A stretch of 63,437 nt of DNA, filler included, from Folioceros fuciformis (taxonomy: Eukaryota), in assembly GCA_049999805.1 (NCBI GenBank). It is 4 parts of 4 records of this genome, joined end to end, with 100 filler letters (N's around TTAATTAATTAA, not from the genome) between each part and the next. Parts side by side here need not be neighbours in the genome. Positions count along the whole stretch, not along the records: positions 1 to 20,555 come from JBNGIO010006279.1; 3 more parts are not named here. One strand, 5' to 3'. Below the pieces are notes generated by a model. The model worked only from the letters and a program-made list of their open reading frames with translations, searched no databases and was not told the origin of the DNA. Both the position numbers and the translations under genes were made by a program. How positions within the stretch are numbered: position 1 is the first letter of the stretch; each line of letters starts with the position of its first letter. Positions 4,675 to 19,499 of the stretch are shown here, one piece after another.

Positions 4675-5557
4675 ATGGCGGCGGCTGCATTTGCCGCAGG
4701 CGCGGTGGTGCCGCGGGCTGTATCTCGCGCCGCGCCGGCCACCTCCTCGGGTTGTGCGCCGTGCGGGGTGCGGGTGAGCGGGATCACGAGACCCCGGGCC
4801 GCGGCCTCGAGCCTGGGCCGCAGGAGGCCGGCAGAAGAGCTGCAGCAGGAGAGCGGATCACGGGGGCCGTGGCAGGTGGTTCGGTCGCTGGTGCAGGAGG
4901 CGGAGCAGGCGGAGGCGGACCAGGAGGCTGCGGATGGAGCGCCTGCTGGCGTTCAGGAGACCATAACCATGTTCTTCAAGGTGCGTGCGCATCCGCCGCT
5001 GGTGTCGGGCTTCTGCTTGCTTTCACGCAACTGCATTGTCGCCGCTCATGCTGTTGTTTTGCAGGCGGAAGGCAGCCTGAGCGAGGCAGCTGTGCCTAAG
5101 GTGCAGACGGCGCTGGAGGTGAGAATTAGTGCGATTTCGTTGCTCTTTGCCTTTGCCTTTGCGTTGCCCTTGCCTTTGCCTTTGCGTTGCCCCAAGGGAA
5201 GGAATATAAGTCCGGGGTGGCCTGTGCAGGCGCTGGATGGTGTGAGCCATGTCAAAGTGTATGTGGCAGAAGGAACTGCAACTGTAGAGGTGTGTGGATT
5301 GCCCTCCATCTTTTCTCTGCAAAGTTTACCATTCGCTTAGCGACCCGAGCATGGCTTACGGTATGTGTGTGGTGTCATGGCAGCTAACGAAGCAGAGCCT
5401 TGTCCAAGAGTCTGGAGTAGCATCAGGTCTAGTTGAAGTTATCCAATCTAATGGCTTTAAAATGCAAGCGTTAAATTTAGGATTTGATGATGACAATGAT
5501 GACGATGATAGTTTGTATTCCTACGATGATACGGCTGAGGAGGAAGTATCCACTTAA
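4675..5557 (+). CDS. Plastid-targeted HMA/ferredoxin-like-fold protein (heavy-metal-associated superfamily), 4 exons
   Basis: Ala/Arg/Ser-rich transit peptide, then exons ETITMFFK / AEGSLSEAAVPKVQTALE / ALDGVSHVKVYVAEGTATVE / LTKQSLVQESGVASGLVEVIQSNGFKMQALNLGF plus an acidic tail. Introns are GT-AG. No CxxC motif is seen. Confidence 0.75.
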
Positions 5558-6639
5558 TTCAACTGATTCTACTCGCGACAGACTACCCACATCTCACCAT
5601 CGCGTAGTGTTTGCTTCCTCGGTGCTCCTAATGGTTTCCGTACTGGGGATTCCGGGTGCCCCAACGGCCATCTGGGTTGGGGGGCATCTAAAGGATTGTG
5701 TAGTGGGTATCCAACCGTCGTATTCTCAGCACATAGTTCATCGCGAAACAGCGTCAAGCATTGAGGCCCGAAGTCCGTCCTCAGAGATATGTATGGCATC
5801 CACAGCAGGTTCGCCGGCTCTGCTTCAAGCTTTATGTATAAAATCCAATCCAGTGGTCCCGCCACATTCCAGCATCCAAGGGTACTTCCGTGTTTGACTA
5901 AATGGCTAGACACAGGTAACTCTCATCAGCCTATGAAGCGCTATGTATATATGTACACGCAAGGCACCCTGTACTGCTCTTGACGACCGACCGTCTTAAA
6001 CCGGTATCCACAATCGACCTGGTCGGGACTCCCTTACAAATTCCACTTCAGTAGGCTGCCGAAGTCCACATAACCCTTCCAGAGGAGCAACCTGTCACGC
6101 ATGTTTGGGCACCAAATGCACCAGCTTATCATCAATACGTGTAGAAGAAAGCTAGAAGGCATATCCTAAACTGCGTATGCTTCACTCGTGACTGTGTCAG
6201 CTAGTCTATTTCTGTCAGATCACGCCATACTACAAAACACTCTTAATTAGGATTCATGAGCAGCACTCGGTCACCAGTACAATCTGTTCCTTGTCCGTAT
6301 GAATACTGTGTATTCTCAGCTGCATTCCTCCAATAGGGTATCAGATTTAGTCTCAGATTTAATCTCAAGTACAGACAATTGTCTATGGATACCCCTCCCT
6401 CATACTCAAGACTGCACCTCAGTTTAAGAAATAACATAGCGCACCGGTGGAACCATACGGCCACCCACACAAACTCTCAATGCAATCAGAAAACCTCCAG
6501 CATGGGTAACTTTCTTTTCCCCTGCATCATCCAACCCTCCATTAGCAGTCTGACATTTGTTTCATATTCCATATCGTTCATTAGGCTCTAAGGTTAGGGA
6601 AGTTACACTAAACCAACAGAGGACGACAAGTGAGAGACA

Positions 6640-9087
6640 TACCAGAGGTTGCGCCTTCTCTACTTTCTCCTCCAATTCAGCTGCTAGCCTCTCTTCCTCC
6701 GTCTCAACTTCCTTCTCAGCGGCCTTGGAGCGACATCCGTTTTCCAAGGGGGGCACAGGTGGCAGCATGGGTGGATGCAGCTGGGTTGGGAAAAGCTCCG
6801 CTAACAATTTAGGGTCCGGATTGAGTGACTGGAACAGTTTTAACCCAAAGTTACCCTGCAACGAACATGCCCATCAATGTTTGCAACTGTATTAAGAAAA
6901 ACGCGTTATCACACACAAAACTGGCAATTCTAAGTCCTCCTGTTACCTTCGGAGTTATAAGTTTGCAAGCCAATCCATCTATAGCAGATACAGCTAAAAC
7001 TGTCTGCAGCACACAATTACCCCCTCAGTAGGATCAAGGAGGAAAATAATCTTAGCTCAAGAAGAGAACAGCGAGCAAAACAATTTTATGTCGAAACAGG
7101 TTTTCATGAGGTATCCTGTCGTGCTACTACCTGCATGTATGCTTCGATGAGATCATCAACACCAATGCCGATGCGATTAAAATCTCGACTATCCATCAAG
7201 AGCAATCGCTCCGTCTCAGTTCCCCATGAACCATCCGCGTTCTGCGTGGCCACCAACAAAAGTGTGAGAAACTGCAAACAAGGACTTCACACAATCTCTA
7301 CACCACGATGTGAAATTTACGGACCCTGAAGGACAGGTTGGTTCCAAGCATATCCCAGGACTGCGTTCCAGCATCCAACTTCTCAGCCAAAGGTAGACGG
7401 GCCCGTCTTGCATATATTGCAACCGGGAAAAAACCTTCCGGTGACGAACCGATCATGAGCCTCAGATCAGCTGNNNNNNNNNNNNNNNNNNNNNNNNNNN
7501 NNNNNNNNNNNNNNNNNNNNNNNNNNNNNNNNNNNNNNNNNNNNNNNNNNNNNNNNNNNNNNNNNNNNNNNNNCCCTTCAAATTTGGTATAGTCCCAACG
7601 TGGTATAGCCTCCCAGCTCCGGCAACTGAGCTCCATCCATTGTTCCCTATCAGAGCCTGTAATTCAGGGTGAGTATACAAAATAGAACCACCAACTGGTA
7701 AACGCGAAATGGCCCCGACAGCGTAACTATCCTAGTCAACGCTTTATTCCGAGCAACGAAAACCCAACCTGCACAATAAAACGATCATAACGATGTTCGA
7801 TGTCCATAAACTGTTTCAATTCCGCCTCGTGCGTTATAGTCCAGACGCCTTGTCCGGCATTTGCATATGGTACTTTCACGACTGCCAATCCCCCCATTCT
7901 TCGCACCCACAACGGAACCTCTGGTTTTGCGACGTCCCAAATCGTCTCCGGGGTATGGATTGTCAAGCCAGTACCAGCAATATCGGCGTTGTGAAGGTCA
8001 TAGGCCTTGGCTGCCAGCATTTTGTTGCGTCCTCCGGCAAGGCAAGCAAGCACAGGGTTGAAGATCAAAGTGCGCGTAATAGGAGGGATGCGAGACCACG
8101 GTCGCTGGGTAACATATCGTAATGCAGCACGAACTGGCTCCCATTTCTCTTCTCCGAGTGCGTTCAGCCCGTTGCCCATAGCACTGCCATTTGAAGATCC
8201 GAGTCCTTGGGATCTGTGTACCAGATTAGATGTGCATATCTCAAGAACACCATCCTCTCTGCACCGAACTTTGGGATGAGGGTCATCTGCATAGCACGGA
8301 GCCAAATAGACAGACTCCCCTGCAAGATCTGCCAGCACAGCAGCATAGCCTGAAGCTTCCATTTTGTTCTTATCATAAAATACTGCTAGCTTCCCTTCCG
8401 GCAGAACCTCGCCGTTAAACTTCCCGGCCCGAAGAGACGGCATAAATGCTTTCTCCAGCAATGTACGGTAGCCTGCATGCTCCATATCTTCATTTGCGAG
8501 AGGCATAGACTTCTGACCAGATGGGCATGAATTCGTCTCTACGACTACTAGTCGTTTCTGACCCCGATCTGAAGTGGTCGCAAATAGGTCCGCTCCACCC
8601 CATTGAAAGTAACTGCAAACACAATGCCGCAACAGCCAGCTTCACAGACGATTCTTGAAACCTCATGACGAAGCGGAGTAGGCAAACGTCTAAACCTCTA
8701 GGTCATTACAACTACAAAAGATCTATCCGCATCCGCAGCTATGCTAGCAATGTATAGAAGTCAAGCCGAGATATGTACAAATATGCACTCTGAGCAAGAA
8801 CTCAGAGCTGATGATTGCACTCGTGGCGAACCATACCGTGTACTATGCGCCAAAACCTTCACCACTGCTTCGTGATTGGCCTCAGGATGAAGATGGCAAT
8901 ATCGCTTAGCAATACGCTCGTTGCCAAGACATAGAAAAGAGCGGACAAGCGGATGAATTTGAGCGTTCAAAACGCGGGGATAGAAGTGATCGGCCGGCTC
9001 AAACGTCCCCTGCTCAACCAGCTCCACTTGACGATCAAAACAGTAGGCAGGTGAGGACACGACAGGCTGCTCTATACCGGCTCCCAT
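6640..9087 (-). CDS. Uncharacterised ATP-grasp-fold-like protein, multi-exon (3' end uncertain; N-gap at 7474-7573)
   Basis: Exons join to give [21 protein letters not shown] / [66 protein letters not shown] / [30 protein letters not shown] / [29 protein letters not shown]. The VK.P....GQGV, IVQ and DLR motifs match the ATP-grasp pattern. Confidence 0.7.
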
Positions 9088-10397
9088 CTCTCTGACGCTC
9101 TTGTATCAAACTTGTTCCCAAAACGCGGCCGCCAGCCTCCGTCCGTTCGTGGCCTGGATTAGGTGCTGCTCTTTATCTTCACAACGCGCCTCCGAATTGC
9201 CTTGCCAAGTTCAGAATTGGACTCCCGTCCTCCATCAGTGGGAGAAGAAAATCTCCCAATGATGTGAACTTGCCCTCGAGCACAACGTACCGCAATATAT
9301 AGCTGTTTCATGCTTCTTATCCACAGAAAAGACCTCCGCCCCAGATCTAAAGTAGACAGTTCAACAAAGTGAGTGCCACCAATAGAATTACATCACAGAT
9401 ATCACAAATTGAACGCGTCCAAGCAGGGATCCAAAAGCGAGAGACTATCTGGACCGCACTAAGTTCATCTATAGTAAAAATAGCCACACAGATCTGTGAT
9501 CTAAGCCAGCAGGATTGTACGTGAACATGAAAGGAGAAGAAGATACAGACCTCTTGAAAGAAACACAACAGCTAAGAGCTCAGCACAGGCACTTCAAAAC
9601 ATCGCCAAACAAAGAATACAGCCTTAACTCCACATAAGTCCACAATCAAGCCACTGGTACAACATCCAGAGCGTCACACTTAATTGATGGCCGCAAAAAC
9701 ACCTCTCTTCAGGGAAAAACCACAGCTCTTCAAAGAAGGCACCCAGACCCGTCGGCACATGCACCACGCACAAGAGGGCCCGCAAGAAGAGTGGCAGCAA
9801 AGCAAGGAGTCCAGAAACAAGGAAAAAAATCCCACTCCTTCACAAAATCGACCACGCTGGGATGTGCATCAAGCTCCGCCTCCCGCGTGCCGCTGAGTCA
9901 CTCTAGCATCACTAAAACAAGAGTTCCCAGGGCGCAGAAAGAAGCAAACCCGGGCATGCAGCATATCAAAAGGAATCTTATGGCAGCGCGAGCTCGACAG
10001 GCTGTGCTAGGGCGGCGGACGGCGAGCGCACAGGCTGCAGCGGCTTCGCAGCGAGAGCCAGCACACGACAGACGGACCAACCGTCTCCCCTCCTCCGGCC
10101 TTCAACTCCAGGGTGGGGCGCGGGCTTCGTTCGTGTGCCACGTGGCGAAATGAGCATATTCTCCCTGGATGAACGCCAGACAGGCATGTCACGATCCAGG
10201 GACAACGTCACCATACGGATATTGGTCCGAATATGACAATGCGACGCGGATATGTCGTAAACGCGAAACTCGAACAGATGTGTCTTTCACAAATACCGGC
10301 TTCCTCCTCCCAGTTTTCAATCACTGCTGACTGTCAGGAATTAGTAACTGGATAGGTCCAGACGGGACGCTGCGACTGGTGCTGGTCAATCCTATCA

Positions 10398-12690
10398 CTA
10401 CGGAAACTGGATGGAGCTGCAGCAGTGGTAGTAACCGTTGTCATCGTAGGCGAACCGTTGAGACAGATGGGCTTCGGTGATGACGTATCTACCCCACTCT
10501 TTGGCCCCGTACTGCTCGATTATTGACCTGGCATCGAAGGGCTTGCGCTTCCGAGACTGGCCACGCCTTCCTCTGCCAAAGCAGACACCCTCTTGTCATT
10601 GTCGGCTGAGAATATCAGGATAACAAGTAACCGTGACAGCTGAAGAGGGCAGGATGGTACAAGGCACAAGTGGAGAGGAGATATTCACCTTTTGCGGTGG
10701 CTCGTGTTCATCAGCGTTGCGTGCAGCTGTAGGAAGAGGACAGAGTCACGAGATTGGGCGCTGCGAAGAATCCACGAAAGCCAGAAATGCCTGTACTAAC
10801 CTTCAAGGGTTGGTCCTTATCACGGTCCATGACGAGCCCGGCTTGCGTAAACGCATCGATCAGAACCTCTGGTTGTTATGGTTCAGGAACCCAAACAAGG
10901 ACATGAGCAATGAGAATGTGAACGATGAGTATGGCTGACAATCACAGGATACTGCATGCTGCCATGAGCCGGTTTTCCTGGCCTGGTTCTTGGACCTTGG
11001 CGTACAAAACATGAGCCTTGGCAAGATTCGACCTCATGCAGTCCTGACACGCCACGAGTGCAGGTTAGTGAAGATTTCACCCATAGTTCTCTTCAGCAAC
11101 TTGGTGTAGAGCTGGATGCAGAATAGATGAGTAGCCGCAGTATAGGTGCAAGGGTCTTACCACACCATTTAGGTCTATCTCAACTGCTCGACTGTCCAGC
11201 GCAAGAAGAACCGGCACACGAATTTTCTGGGATGCAATATGTTACGAACAAGAGAGGACAATGCTCAGTTCATTTAAAGTAGTACAAAATCACCCTTCAG
11301 CAACTTGGGACCGGAAACGGACTCCTGACGGTTAACTTGCCTGCAAGACGTCTATCGCAGTCTGGATCCGATCTCCATTCCATAGCTTCAACATCAGCAC
11401 AGTAAGGTGAAATGTTTTCGCGTTGACAAATATGGACTTGTCTATACCTAGATATGCTCATACCACAAAATGCTCGTTATTGTCTCACAGTCTCGTAAGC
11501 AAGACTTGATGGTGCTTTGCAGGGAAGCAACATGACCAATACCTTCCCCTGCTTTCCTGGGGTTCACAGCAGTGGACATGGTCTCACCCTCTTCATCGTC
11601 GGAGACCTCCTCGACATTGTCCTCGCCACCGTTGACTGTGCTAAGGACTGTTTCTTCAAACCTGACAATTTCGTCGACCAGAGATCCATGTAGTGCAAGC
11701 GGCAACGAAATGAAATGTGTGTACTGATAATTTGGGCTTCTGACAGCCTGGAAAACGCAGCACAACATATTCCTGGATACTCCGTCTGTCAAGACATGGT
11801 CTCAGCACATGAAGAAAGAACCGGCTTACCTGTTCCACGACTTCATCTATGGCTTTCATAGCCTTACTGACTGCCTCCTGAGTTGGGCCCTTAACAACTG
11901 TGTCGAAGGAGGAAAAAAACAAAAGGAAGAGAAAGCAGAGCTTTCCAATCAGTTACTGCATAGCATTTACCCTAAACTGAAAAGTCTGATCATTTAAGAC
12001 GGGTTAAGTCCATCTCAGAAGATGGGGCTTACTGATGACTGAGTTGAACTTTCCTGCAGTCCACTTCGAGGGAATGTTCAGCTCTGCAGCACTGTCACTC
12101 TCAATCTTAGCCTTGGTTGTTCCCCCTGTTCCAACAATGTACTTCAGAAGACTTGTATCGACCTGCAACGAAGGTCTGACAGTATGAATTTGATCGCTTT
12201 TCTCATTGCTGGTGACTGTTTTTTGGCGGCCACACTCCTGGTGAATGGGTGTCGGCGTGAGCGAAGGACAGAAACAAACTTGCCCTTCTTACGACACAGA
12301 CCACCGACCTGATAAGAAGCTACGTGCTCCTGTGCCTTCTCCGTTCCTGCTGCAGGAGCTGCTGTCACATCTACGTCCATCAGACTTCGAGAGCCAGTTT
12401 TGTCTGCGCGAGGAACAAAACTCTCTTTATTGAAAAATTAAAACAATCATGGTCACGACACAACATGACCCTGTCCTCCCATACGCATGCAGTCGAATAA
12501 AACTGCGGATGACACTAGGTAGAAGAAAAAACTGTGCCTTCCATCGACATGGACACCAATTGATTTTGCTGGCTTGTGGGTCCGATTTGCGAACTACTGG
12601 CGGCCACCTGCACGGTAGTGGAGTACTGCCGAGAGGCCCCCTGCCCTCTGGGCTGGGCGGACACTGCAAACCTCAGATGGGGATCCATAC
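10398..12690 (-). CDS. ASCC1-like protein: KH domain plus AKAP7/LigT-type 2H phosphoesterase, multi-exon (start approximate)
   Basis: KH GxxG loop (YIVGTGGTTKAKIE), YTHFISLPL, two HxT motifs (FHLTVLMLKLWN and LHATLMNT), and C-terminus FDARSII..EWG.Y.ITEAHLSQRFAYDDNGYYHCCSSIQFP* with stop at 10398. Confidence 0.85.
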
Positions 12691-17279: not shown

Positions 17280-19499
17280 TCCGGAAAATTGTCTTTGGTT
17301 TGCAATGTGCCGAAACTGTGCACAGTTAACAATGATTTGGTTATGGGGCGACGGGTTCATGATCTCTTCGTGAAACTTGGCTACGAGTCGAATGCATACG
17401 CGGGAAACCATATCTTGCGCATGTAGGCATGTGGAGGTAGGCTAGATGAGGCCATGCATGTGCTCACCAGAGTGGACAAGCCGGATGCTTTTATGTGGTC
17501 TTCCATAATCTCCGCTCGCGCTAAGCATGGGAAACCTGAGTGGGCCATACAACTGTATCAGGTGATGCGAAGGTCAGGAGTGAAGGCAGATGCATACGTC
17601 TTCGTAGCTGCCCTTCAGGCTTGTGCATTGGCTGCCGACTTGGAATCTGGCAGAAAAGCGCACCGTGATGTGGTGCAGAGTGGTGTTCCTGCTAACTTGT
17701 GTGTGGGCAGCTGCCTGGTGGACATGTATGCAAAACATGTGTACGGACAAATGGAGGAGGCGGGCGTCATTTTGGCTGACCGTGTTACTTTTGCTGGCCT
17801 TTTGAAGGCCTGTGGAAGCACTGGTGCCTTTCAGAAGGGCATGAAATTGCACTCACAGATAGTAGAAAGAGGACTGCTGGATGACGTTCTGGTGGGCAGC
17901 TGCCTGGTGGACATGTCTGCGAAATGTGGCAAAATGACAGATGTACGCCAGGTTTTTGACAGCATGGGCTCAAAGAATGTAGTGACATGGAATGTTCTGA
18001 TAGCAGGGTATGCACAGCAAGGACTCGGCCAAGAGGCGCTTGTTGTGTATGGACAAATGAAGGAGGCAGGCTTCAATTTGGCTAACGACGTTACTTTTGC
18101 TTGCCTTCTGAAGGCCTGTGCAAGAACTGGTGCCTTACAAAAGGGCAGACAGCTGCATTCACAGATTGTTGAAAGAGGACTGCTGGATGACGGCTCGGTG
18201 GGCAACTGCCTGGTGGATATGTATGCGAAATGTGGGAAACTGGAAGATGCACGACAGGTTTTTCACAGCATGGCCACAAAGGATGTGGTGACATGGACAG
18301 CGCTAATTGCTGGGTATGCACAGCAAGGACTTGGCCAAGAGGCGCTTGTTGTGTATGGGCAAATGGAGGAATCTGGTCTTACTTTGGCTAACCATGTTAC
18401 TTTTGCTTGCCTTCTGAAGGCCTGTGGAAACACGGGTGCGTTACAGATGGGCAGGCAGCTTCACTCACAGATTTTCCAACGAGGACTGCTGGATAACGTA
18501 GTGGTGGGCACCTGCCTGGTGGACATGTTCAAAATGTGGTGAAATGGAAGATGCACGCCAGGTTTTTGACAGCATGGCCACGAAGGATGTGGTGACATGG
18601 AATGCCCTGATTTCTGGGTATGGTGCTTGCAGCTTGAGGTCACAAGGCACTAGCTTGTTTTGAGGAGATGTTGGTTGCGGTTCATCCTAATGATGTTACT
18701 TTCACTTACGTCCTAGTAGCATGAAGCCATGAGGGATTGGTCCACGAGGGTCGCAAACAATTTGATTCCATGACTGAAGAGCATGGCATCAAACCTACTA
18801 TTGAGCATTGCACCTGCATGGTTGATCTTCTTGGGCGTGCTGTCCACTTAGATGAGGCAGAGACAATGCTATTGTCATGTGAGTACCAGAGTAATGTTGT
18901 GGGCTTGACATCTTTGTTGCATGCCTGCAAAAGTCACGGGGATGTAGGGAGGGCTGTGGTGTTTCGAAAGGATTGCTAGGCTGGAACCTCAAAGGGCGTC
19001 GGCCTATGTTCTCATGGCCAATACCTACGCAGATGCAGGTATGTGGGGCAATGTAGACAGGATAGAAACGCAGAGAAGAGTAGCAGGAGCTAACAAGAAA
19101 TCTTTAGTAGCGACCCTTGAGGTGAATAAGGAGGTGCATAGATTTTTGGTGGGAGAAAGGAACGAGAGTATTGCTCTTAAAGTGGAGAGCACGAATGCCC
19201 AGCTGAAGCAGGAAGGGGGATATGTACCACAAACGAAGTTGGTGTTGAAGCAACTCTATGAGACAGAAAAGGAAGATTTGCTTTGCGGGCATGCTGAGAA
19301 GCTAGCTCTGGCTTTTGGCCTCTTGAACACACCGAGCGGCACTCCTCTGGTGGTAACGAAAAATCTACGCATGTGCAGTGACTGCCAGAGTTCCACGGAG
19401 ATCATGTCAAGGCTTGAACACAGACGCATTGTTGTAAGGGATGGATCCCGTGTACATCAATTCGCAGATGGCTGTTGCAGTTGTAAGGGTCGGCCGTGA
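17280..19499 (+). pseudogene. PLS-class PPR with E and DYW:KP-type (HAE..GRP) deaminase domain; disrupted
   Basis: P-L-S triplets (VTWNVLIAGYAQQG, VTFACLLKAC, CLVDMYAKCG) and a C-terminal LCGHAEKLALAFGL..KNLRMCSDC..CSCKGRP. Lesions: in-frame TAG near 17425, frameshifts near 18530, 18635 and 18960, and a TGA near 18722. Confidence 0.88.

Follow-up and report, generated by a model that had tools for sequence, protein, structure and literature searches.

What does a spliced gene with strongly enzyme-like motifs, in a plant genome, encode when no known family claims its product? The question is raised by a stretch of DNA from Folioceros fuciformis (GenBank assembly GCA_049999805.1), 63,437 nucleotides long and referred to here as the window, in which four parts of four records are joined by 100-letter fillers; the gene lies in the first part (positions 1 to 20,555, record JBNGIO010006279.1). 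A sequence-only reading of positions 6640 to 9087 had proposed an undescribed ligase of the ATP-grasp kind. We read the locus as a transcribed nuclear gene for a circularly permuted ATP-grasp enzyme that looks cytosolic and most likely makes a small dipeptide-like product, and we give this reading as a whole a probability of roughly 0.72.

The gene and its transcripts

The gene model was obtained by placing P0001, the closest full-length relative (590 amino acids, from a transcriptome collection), on the window with tblastn, reading the splice sites, and checking the result by script. The ligase gene lies on the minus strand, occupies 6640-9087, and continues into a short last exon, or exons, below 6640. 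All seven introns run from GT to AG, and the frame stays open for 584 or 604 amino acids. Contigs from four of four sequencing runs omit exactly the five internal introns (8613-8836, 7657-7768, 7242-7324, 7004-7130, and 6856-6946). Given that these contigs lack introns, we took the runs to be transcripts; in addition, a fraction of 0.76 of the words sampled from 7574-9200 is present in one public run, approximately the exon share of that stretch. The contigs of one run are identical to the window, and those of the other three are ∼93 to 95% alike, for which reason we attribute them to relatives.

Coding exon 1 (8837-9087, minus strand, like all that follow) was placed by the tblastn alignment of P0001 and by the contig junction 8612|8837. 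It begins with an ATG at 9087-9085, has an in-frame stop just upstream (open reading frame 8761-9105), and ends in a split codon of two bases before the donor GTATGG. The 5' untranslated region occupies 9088-9300 and runs past 9300, since one contig (X1 record 2) is unbroken over 8837-9300 and continues for 589 letters upstream. Exon 2 (7769-8612) holds 281 full codons, including the motif FIVQ, and is 89% identical to P0001 over those 281 amino acids. Exons 3 (7325-7656, carrying DLR, ARRAR, and GTNLS), 4 (7131-7241, including EAYMQ), and 5 (6947-7003) were each found by tblastn, contigs, and script. Exon 6 (6643-6855, donor GTATGT) holds the start of a plant-specific C-terminal extension with a proline-rich linker and an acidic helix.

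The transcripts then follow one of two last coding exons. The proximal one (6486-6521, acceptor ATGCAG) adds 11 amino acids and a stop, with a tail GKRKLP that resembles the tail of a Sphagnum protein; the contig X1 record 1 links 6520/6521 to 6642/6643 and covers 6200-6520, so that the 3' untranslated region reaches at least to 6200. The distal one (5996-6091, acceptor TGACAG, open reading frame 5996-6094) adds 31 amino acids and a stop and is used by the main contigs of three runs. It lies outside the stretch of contig alignment (6200-9300), and its support consists of the letters of the loose ends that leave the window at 6641 (X1 record 2, X2, and X3) and match window positions ∼6063-6089.

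The sequence-only reading had thus set one boundary exactly, its 9087 being the first base of the ATG. Its other boundary, 6640, falls 3 nucleotides past the end of exon 6 at 6643, and the last exon or exons below were missed. All seven of the motifs it quoted for an intron-containing enzyme gene lie in translated exons; the minus strand had escaped it, as had an assembly gap of 100 N at 7474-7573 within exon 3. In contigs of four of four runs, 11 letters bridge 7473|7574. Because this bridge keeps the frame open and brings the protein to the length of P0001 there, the gap is a placeholder of fixed size for 11 real letters and not a disruption.

Both that gap and the fact that the nearest nonplant relatives are bacterial could be taken as signs of bacterial contamination, of a pseudogene, or of an assembly artefact rather than a working plant gene. 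We find this hardly credible. The introns are of the GT..AG kind, the frame is open, spliced contigs in all four runs close the gap in frame, all checked invariant residues are retained, and the green-plant clade described below broadly tracks plant relationships. Plant genes also flank the locus. At 17427-19499 on the plus strand, open reading frames with PPR repeats are followed by E-motif and DYW deaminase domains, as in plant organellar RNA-editing factors. At 1588-2811 on the minus strand, the start of an open reading frame matches the end of a VPS9 domain; this frame is probably one exon of a gene for a VPS9-domain protein, situated downstream of the ligase gene. These two neighbors point to a plant nuclear context. 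An Rfam search of 5000-10500 gave no match. We conclude that the gene is intact, spliced, transcribed, and nuclear, in a non-flowering-plant-like genome.

Fold and putative active-site motifs

The protein was modeled through its relative P0001, for which AlphaFold2 with a 47-sequence alignment gave a predicted local distance difference test (pLDDT) score of 89.9 and a predicted template modeling score of 0.90. Confidence was low in a plant-specific loop at ∼211-240 and in the linker of the plant-specific C-terminal extension; the acidic helix that ends this extension (559-578) forms a block with a pLDDT of 91 to 92. Foldseek returned 55 matches in the PDB at an E value of ≤0.001, led by 3k1t, the glutathione synthetases of yeast, potato, and human, the E-64 ligase Cp1B, 3n6x, glutathionylspermidine synthetase, YgiC, and YjfC. 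The predicted fold is a three-lobed ATP-grasp, in agreement with the sequence-only reading.

Permuted and classical members of this superfamily align differently with the model. The permuted enzymes (3k1t, human glutathione synthetase, homoglutathione synthetase, YgiC/YjfC, and GspS) align from residues 28-61 to residues 463-499, whereas the classical ATP-grasps (LysX, Ddl, RimK, GshB, and PurK) align only over ∼157-493. When the family profile was compared with that of the classical GshB-like ligase encoded beside its bacterial members (hhalign; probability 83.9, E value 7.7e-6, 231 columns), three elements paired: the Lys/Gly loop VVKVPY..GQGV with AVLKPLQGTRG, the hinge FIVQ with VMVQ, and the D-x-R strands with each other. 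The alignment leaves the invariant C-terminal E-I-N..S-T-G-G of the GshB-like profile unmatched in the equivalent region of the target, which carries a similar motif, E-T-N-S-C-P-S-G, near its N terminus at residues 109-116. The position of E-x-N ahead of the core, together with the whole-length collinearity with permuted enzymes, supports a circularly permuted ATP-grasp of the glutathione synthetase/GspS type in the model, as the sequence-only reading had proposed from the N-terminal ETN.

The motifs themselves are strongly conserved. Across the 47 sequences, K330, G337, and Q365 are invariant and are all retained in the window protein; E109 is invariant, N111 is nearly so, and D399 pairs with D216, which is invariant in the GshB-like profile. 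Of the residues that are invariant or nearly so, 19 were checked and all 19 are present in the window protein, which is 88.4% identical to P0001 and 61.9% identical to P0052, a Bradymonadia protein. Land-plant members differ from bacterial ones by a C-terminal extension of 60 to 90 amino acids that bacteria lack (∼525-590 in P0001) and by the disordered insert at ∼211-240. Relative to the bacterial enzymes, the plant enzyme has no N-terminal extension, and it is therefore likely to be cytosolic.

Distribution, bacterial neighborhood, and history

Exon 2 alone, searched against proteins of 493 to 2,000 amino acids, matches 681 of them with a best E value of 1.9e-167, and the best 120 were listed. 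Every named protein among these 120 is described as hypothetical or uncharacterized. They come from liverworts (Calypogeia and Marchantia), a moss (Sphagnum), lycophytes (Diphasiastrum and Selaginella), ferns (Adiantum and Ceratopteris), gymnosperms (Cryptomeria, Taxus, and two "Gb_" entries that we take to be Ginkgo), the algae Closterium and Botryococcus, the latter a green alga, and the chytrid Entophlyctis. Named eukaryotes are 59 to 89% identical over exon 2, followed by bacterial proteins of ∼500 amino acids at 54 to 64%. No angiosperm name occurs among the best 120 of the 681 matches, the one list on which this absence rests; since gymnosperm proteins stand at 67 to 77%, an angiosperm orthologue would be expected within the range of that list. 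The sequence-only reading had matched the protein to no angiosperm housekeeping ATP-grasp. This agrees with these uncharacterized best matches and with the absence of any family at threshold; the plant relatives are nonflowering.

The family is compact and slow evolving, judging from the mere 417 clusters that an exhaustive HMMER search found at an E value of ≤0.001 among 1.84 billion cluster representatives at 50% identity. Cluster look-ups add the Mortierella-like fungi Podila and Haplosporangium, Fonticula, the red alga Cyanidium, and a Trichuris record, and the Atlas holds a eukaryotic cluster that is most frequent in Mucoromycota. Among prokaryotes, a pattern scan derived from the bacterial alignment, with one genome per bacterial or archaeal species, found loci in 596 species, which fall in Myxococcota, Planctomycetota, Bdellovibrionota, Cyanobacteria (Leptolyngbya-like), Saprospiraceae, Rhodothermota, and Chloroflexota.

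Family databases are nearly silent on these proteins. Neither the six exon translations nor full-length relatives reach the threshold of any Pfam or NCBIfam family, and Pfam gave no family for the window exons at an E value of ≤1 or for P0001, P0052, and P0009 at ≤10. Any of the 47 members taken together match 22 Pfam families at ≤1, with no glutathione synthetase family among them; weak, subthreshold matches to ATP-grasp, RimK, and YheCD families occur in up to 8 of the 47. Searched by sequence, the PDB gave no match to a single sequence and at best E values of 0.67 to 1.9 to a profile. Of 12 long relatives, 11 have no Pfam domain and one has an RFC1-like AAA region, probably from a merged gene model. 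Word searches of the literature, supplements aside, returned no description of the family or of its presence in nonflowering plants; PMC7826186 deals with MysC-like ATP-grasps.

Several individual members are unusual. The 1,136-amino-acid protein of Entophlyctis luteolus (P0002) consists of two tandem copies of the entire ligase, and its halves are each other's closest relatives in the trees. In the annotated model of the Marchantia polymorpha protein (P0009), exon 5 and a portion of the C-terminal extension are missing, and the locus tag given by its source, Mp_Vg00360, suggests a place on the V (male) sex chromosome. The Trichuris suis record (P0152, 912 amino acids) is very divergent, with an end branch of 2.6 to 2.8, and could be contamination or a real transfer.

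The sequence-only reading had suggested inspecting bacterial neighborhoods as well as distribution and phylogeny, and each was carried out. Neighbors were counted by tblastn with three examples per neighbor in 80 loci kept of the 596; some loci end near the gene, so the partner counts are lower bounds. At least 63 of the 80 have a gene for an AstE/AspA-type zinc hydrolase (PF24827) no more than 2.5 kb away, and in 45 it follows the ligase gene immediately on the same strand. The hydrolase is weakly DoeB-like, far under the cutoff of that model. At least 50 have, inside the same distance, a GshB-like ATP-grasp (PF02955 and PF02951) that scores 289 to 297 bits against the cutoff of 408 of the nearest NCBIfam subfamily, and both partners are present in 46. 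Six Bdellovibrionota loci have the hydrolase and no close GshB-like gene. Two cyanobacterial genomes have a GCS2-type gene and a separate GshB that scores 239 to 241 bits, compared to 151 to 153 for the cassette copy, and the latter is therefore not the housekeeping glutathione synthase; Saprospira has the cassette copy only and no recognized GshA. A small Ser/Thr kinase and a PP2C phosphatase stand directly beside the cassette in ∼10 to 12 of the 80 loci, from Myxococcota and Planctomycetota (L008, L038, L040, L042, L052, L054, L075, L078, L080, and others), which hints at control of the cassette by phosphorylation. LysR regulators are neighbors in Bdellovibrionota, and a gamma-glutamyltranspeptidase is a neighbor in one cyanobacterium. 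A Bacteriovoracaceae locus (L061) carries, a few kilobases upstream of the ligase, a RimK-associated "ATP-dependent zinc protease" gene (PF05618, 3895-4338) and a weak RimK/GshB-like match at ∼5200.

Two trees were built by a quick method, from 73 and 49 rows. The green lineage forms one clade (Shimodaira-Hasegawa-like approximate likelihood ratio test, 99) in which Botryococcus is outermost, followed by Closterium and then land plants; it groups with Planctomycetota, with Cyanobacteria and Rhodothermota, and with some Myxococcota, and has no supported sister. Fungal sequences and one unnamed eukaryote form a second clade (96) beside Saprospiraceae and Chloroflexota, and a branch with a support of 98 parts the two. 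Forcing the eukaryotes together cost 34.9 log-likelihood units (approximately unbiased test, P = 0.034) in a test of 46 rows that set aside the long rows of Trichuris, Fonticula, and Cyanidium and whose group was named after the tree had been seen. On our reading, green plants would have acquired or retained the gene once, long ago, angiosperms and other lineages would have lost it later, and fungi would have a separate history. The distribution and the trees fit the earlier suggestion that the gene is shared with microbes through horizontal transfer or patchy retention. We considered a connection with plastid peptidoglycan or with flagellated sperm and rejected it, because conifers, Closterium, and fungi carry the gene.

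Proposed reaction and comparison with known systems

By analogy with better-known ATP-grasps, the enzyme would hold MgATP between its central and C-terminal lobes through Lys281, Lys330, the Gly337-x-Gly339 loop, Gln365, Asp399, and Glu109/Asn111. A substrate carboxylate would be phosphorylated to an acyl phosphate, and attack by an amine would yield an amide or isopeptide bond with ADP and Pi. The product may most plausibly be a small dipeptide-like metabolite, such as a conjugate of the gamma-glutamyl or beta-aspartyl type, rather than a protein. In bacteria, the adjacent AstE/AspA-type zinc amidohydrolase would cleave this product or its precursor, and the neighboring GshB-like ligase would in many cases lengthen it; plants seem to have kept the first ligase alone. 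The structural relatives that match over the whole length all make small amides, namely glutathione, glutathionylspermidine, and E-64 intermediates. Enzymes of the AstE/AspA family cut N-acyl amino acids. One of them, CphZ, cuts the isopeptide dipeptide beta-Asp-Arg, according to PMC9974463. The small amides made by the whole-length relatives and the substrates of the hydrolase family together favor a small dipeptide-like product.

Three other products have to be weighed, and the evidence does not separate them from the one we favor. The enzyme might be a gamma-glutamyl-amino-acid ligase, an analogue of GshA that with its GshB-like neighbor makes glutathione or a glutathione-like tripeptide. 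The prominence of 3k1t among the fold matches lends this idea some appeal, since we take that protein to belong to a rare ATP-grasp-type GshA family, PF08886. That family matches no member and, at an E value of ≤0.001, none of five genomes that carry the gene, a weak negative given that control genomes also had no match; PF08886 sequences sought for a profile comparison were found in 0 of 182 sampled genomes of the class. The two cyanobacteria and Enhygromyxa have a canonical GCS2 and a far better-scoring GshB besides, the Bdellovibrionota loci have no GshB-like partner and none occurs in plants among the matches listed, glutathione synthesis has no step for the hydrolase partner, and plants make glutathione by other enzymes. 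We consider a GshA analogue unlikely. A ligase that couples a carboxylate, be it of a peptide or of an amino acid, with a polyamine or other amine, as GspS or YgiC/YjfC do, would give the AstE/AspA-type protein the role of the GspSA amidase. An arginine decarboxylase and a deoxyhypusine/homospermidine-synthase-like gene do stand beside the cassette, but in just 3 of the 80 loci (L015, 4546-7809; L016, 4707-7720; and L033, 2-2767), divergently in two Rhodothermota loci. None of the 47 members matches the glutathionylspermidine synthetase or CP_ATPgrasp families at an E value of ≤1, and the structures of that kind score below 3k1t, which leaves polyamine conjugation rather improbable.

The remaining possibility is a modifier of proteins or peptides that adds residues to a tail or side chain, in the manner of RimK, LysX, or the TTLs, with an M14-like hydrolase to trim them and phosphorylation as a control. 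The classical enzymes match residues 157-493 only, the whole-length relatives are small-molecule ligases, and no conserved small substrate gene accompanies the cassette in the 80 loci. We therefore give protein modification an outside chance. Returning to our overall reading, several points weigh against it. The very high conservation and the kinase and phosphatase neighbors would also fit a macromolecular substrate, and neither partner is nearby in 13 of the 80 loci. No plant name occurs among the 120 matches listed for each partner search, although the GshB-like search listed one MMETSP transcript; neither partner is encoded in the window, and the Atlas rows listed hold no eukaryotic cluster for them, so that the bacterial context may not carry over to plants. 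The structure modeled is that of P0001, an 88% identical relative, and not of the window's own protein. Template modeling scores in the Foldseek search are low (0.27 to 0.42, with root mean square deviations of >10 Å), which we attribute to domain movements in a multilobed model of 590 amino acids. E109/N111 and D399 are putative metal ligands, and the other individual residue roles are likewise inferred. Finally, the type of the runs is recorded as "RNA?", a guess, and we class them as RNA because they lack introns.

Permuted ATP-grasp amide ligases are an established kind of enzyme; of this family, of its substrate, and of its presence in nonflowering plants we found no description. A broader proposal, which we hold tentatively and think somewhat less probable than an even bet, is that the family makes an unrecognized small amide metabolite (glutathione-like, isopeptide, or amine conjugated) shared by many bacteria and some fungi, by algae, and by every major group of nonflowering land plants, and that the gene was gained once from bacteria in the green lineage before the chlorophyte/streptophyte split and lost in flowering plants. 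Few families combine ∼60% identity between plants and bacteria and a spread over 596 prokaryote loci, green and red algae, bryophytes to gymnosperms, and several fungi with the lack of a name, a Pfam model, or a paper that we could find. That angiosperm models are without the family would account for its having been overlooked by plant biochemistry. If the chemistry is as proposed, a metabolite or modification is absent from current metabolic maps of plants and bacteria. Marchantia and cultivable bacteria, Saprospira grandis among them, would allow the gene to be tested directly.

Among known systems, the top whole-length fold match is 3k1t, a "putative gamma-glutamylcysteine synthetase" of Methylobacillus flagellatus, which is 14% identical and whose activity is putative by its title. 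The fungal ligase Cp1B of E-64 biosynthesis (9cjn) is also among the closest. The eukaryotic glutathione and homoglutathione synthetases (2hgs, 1m0w, 5oes, and 3kal) are 10 to 12% identical and differ in neighbors and taxonomic spread; plants possess their own glutathione synthetase besides. Bacterial GshB and RimK-type ligases are classical and unpermuted, with the E-x-N strand at the C-terminal end and no counterpart of the target's first 156 residues, and the second ligase of the bacterial cassette is one of these. Escherichia coli GspSA, YgiC, YjfC, and trypanothione synthetase have no sequence-level match to the family, and whereas the amidase of GspSA is a fused N-terminal domain, the hydrolase that accompanies this family is a separate zinc-dependent gene product of the AstE/AspA type.

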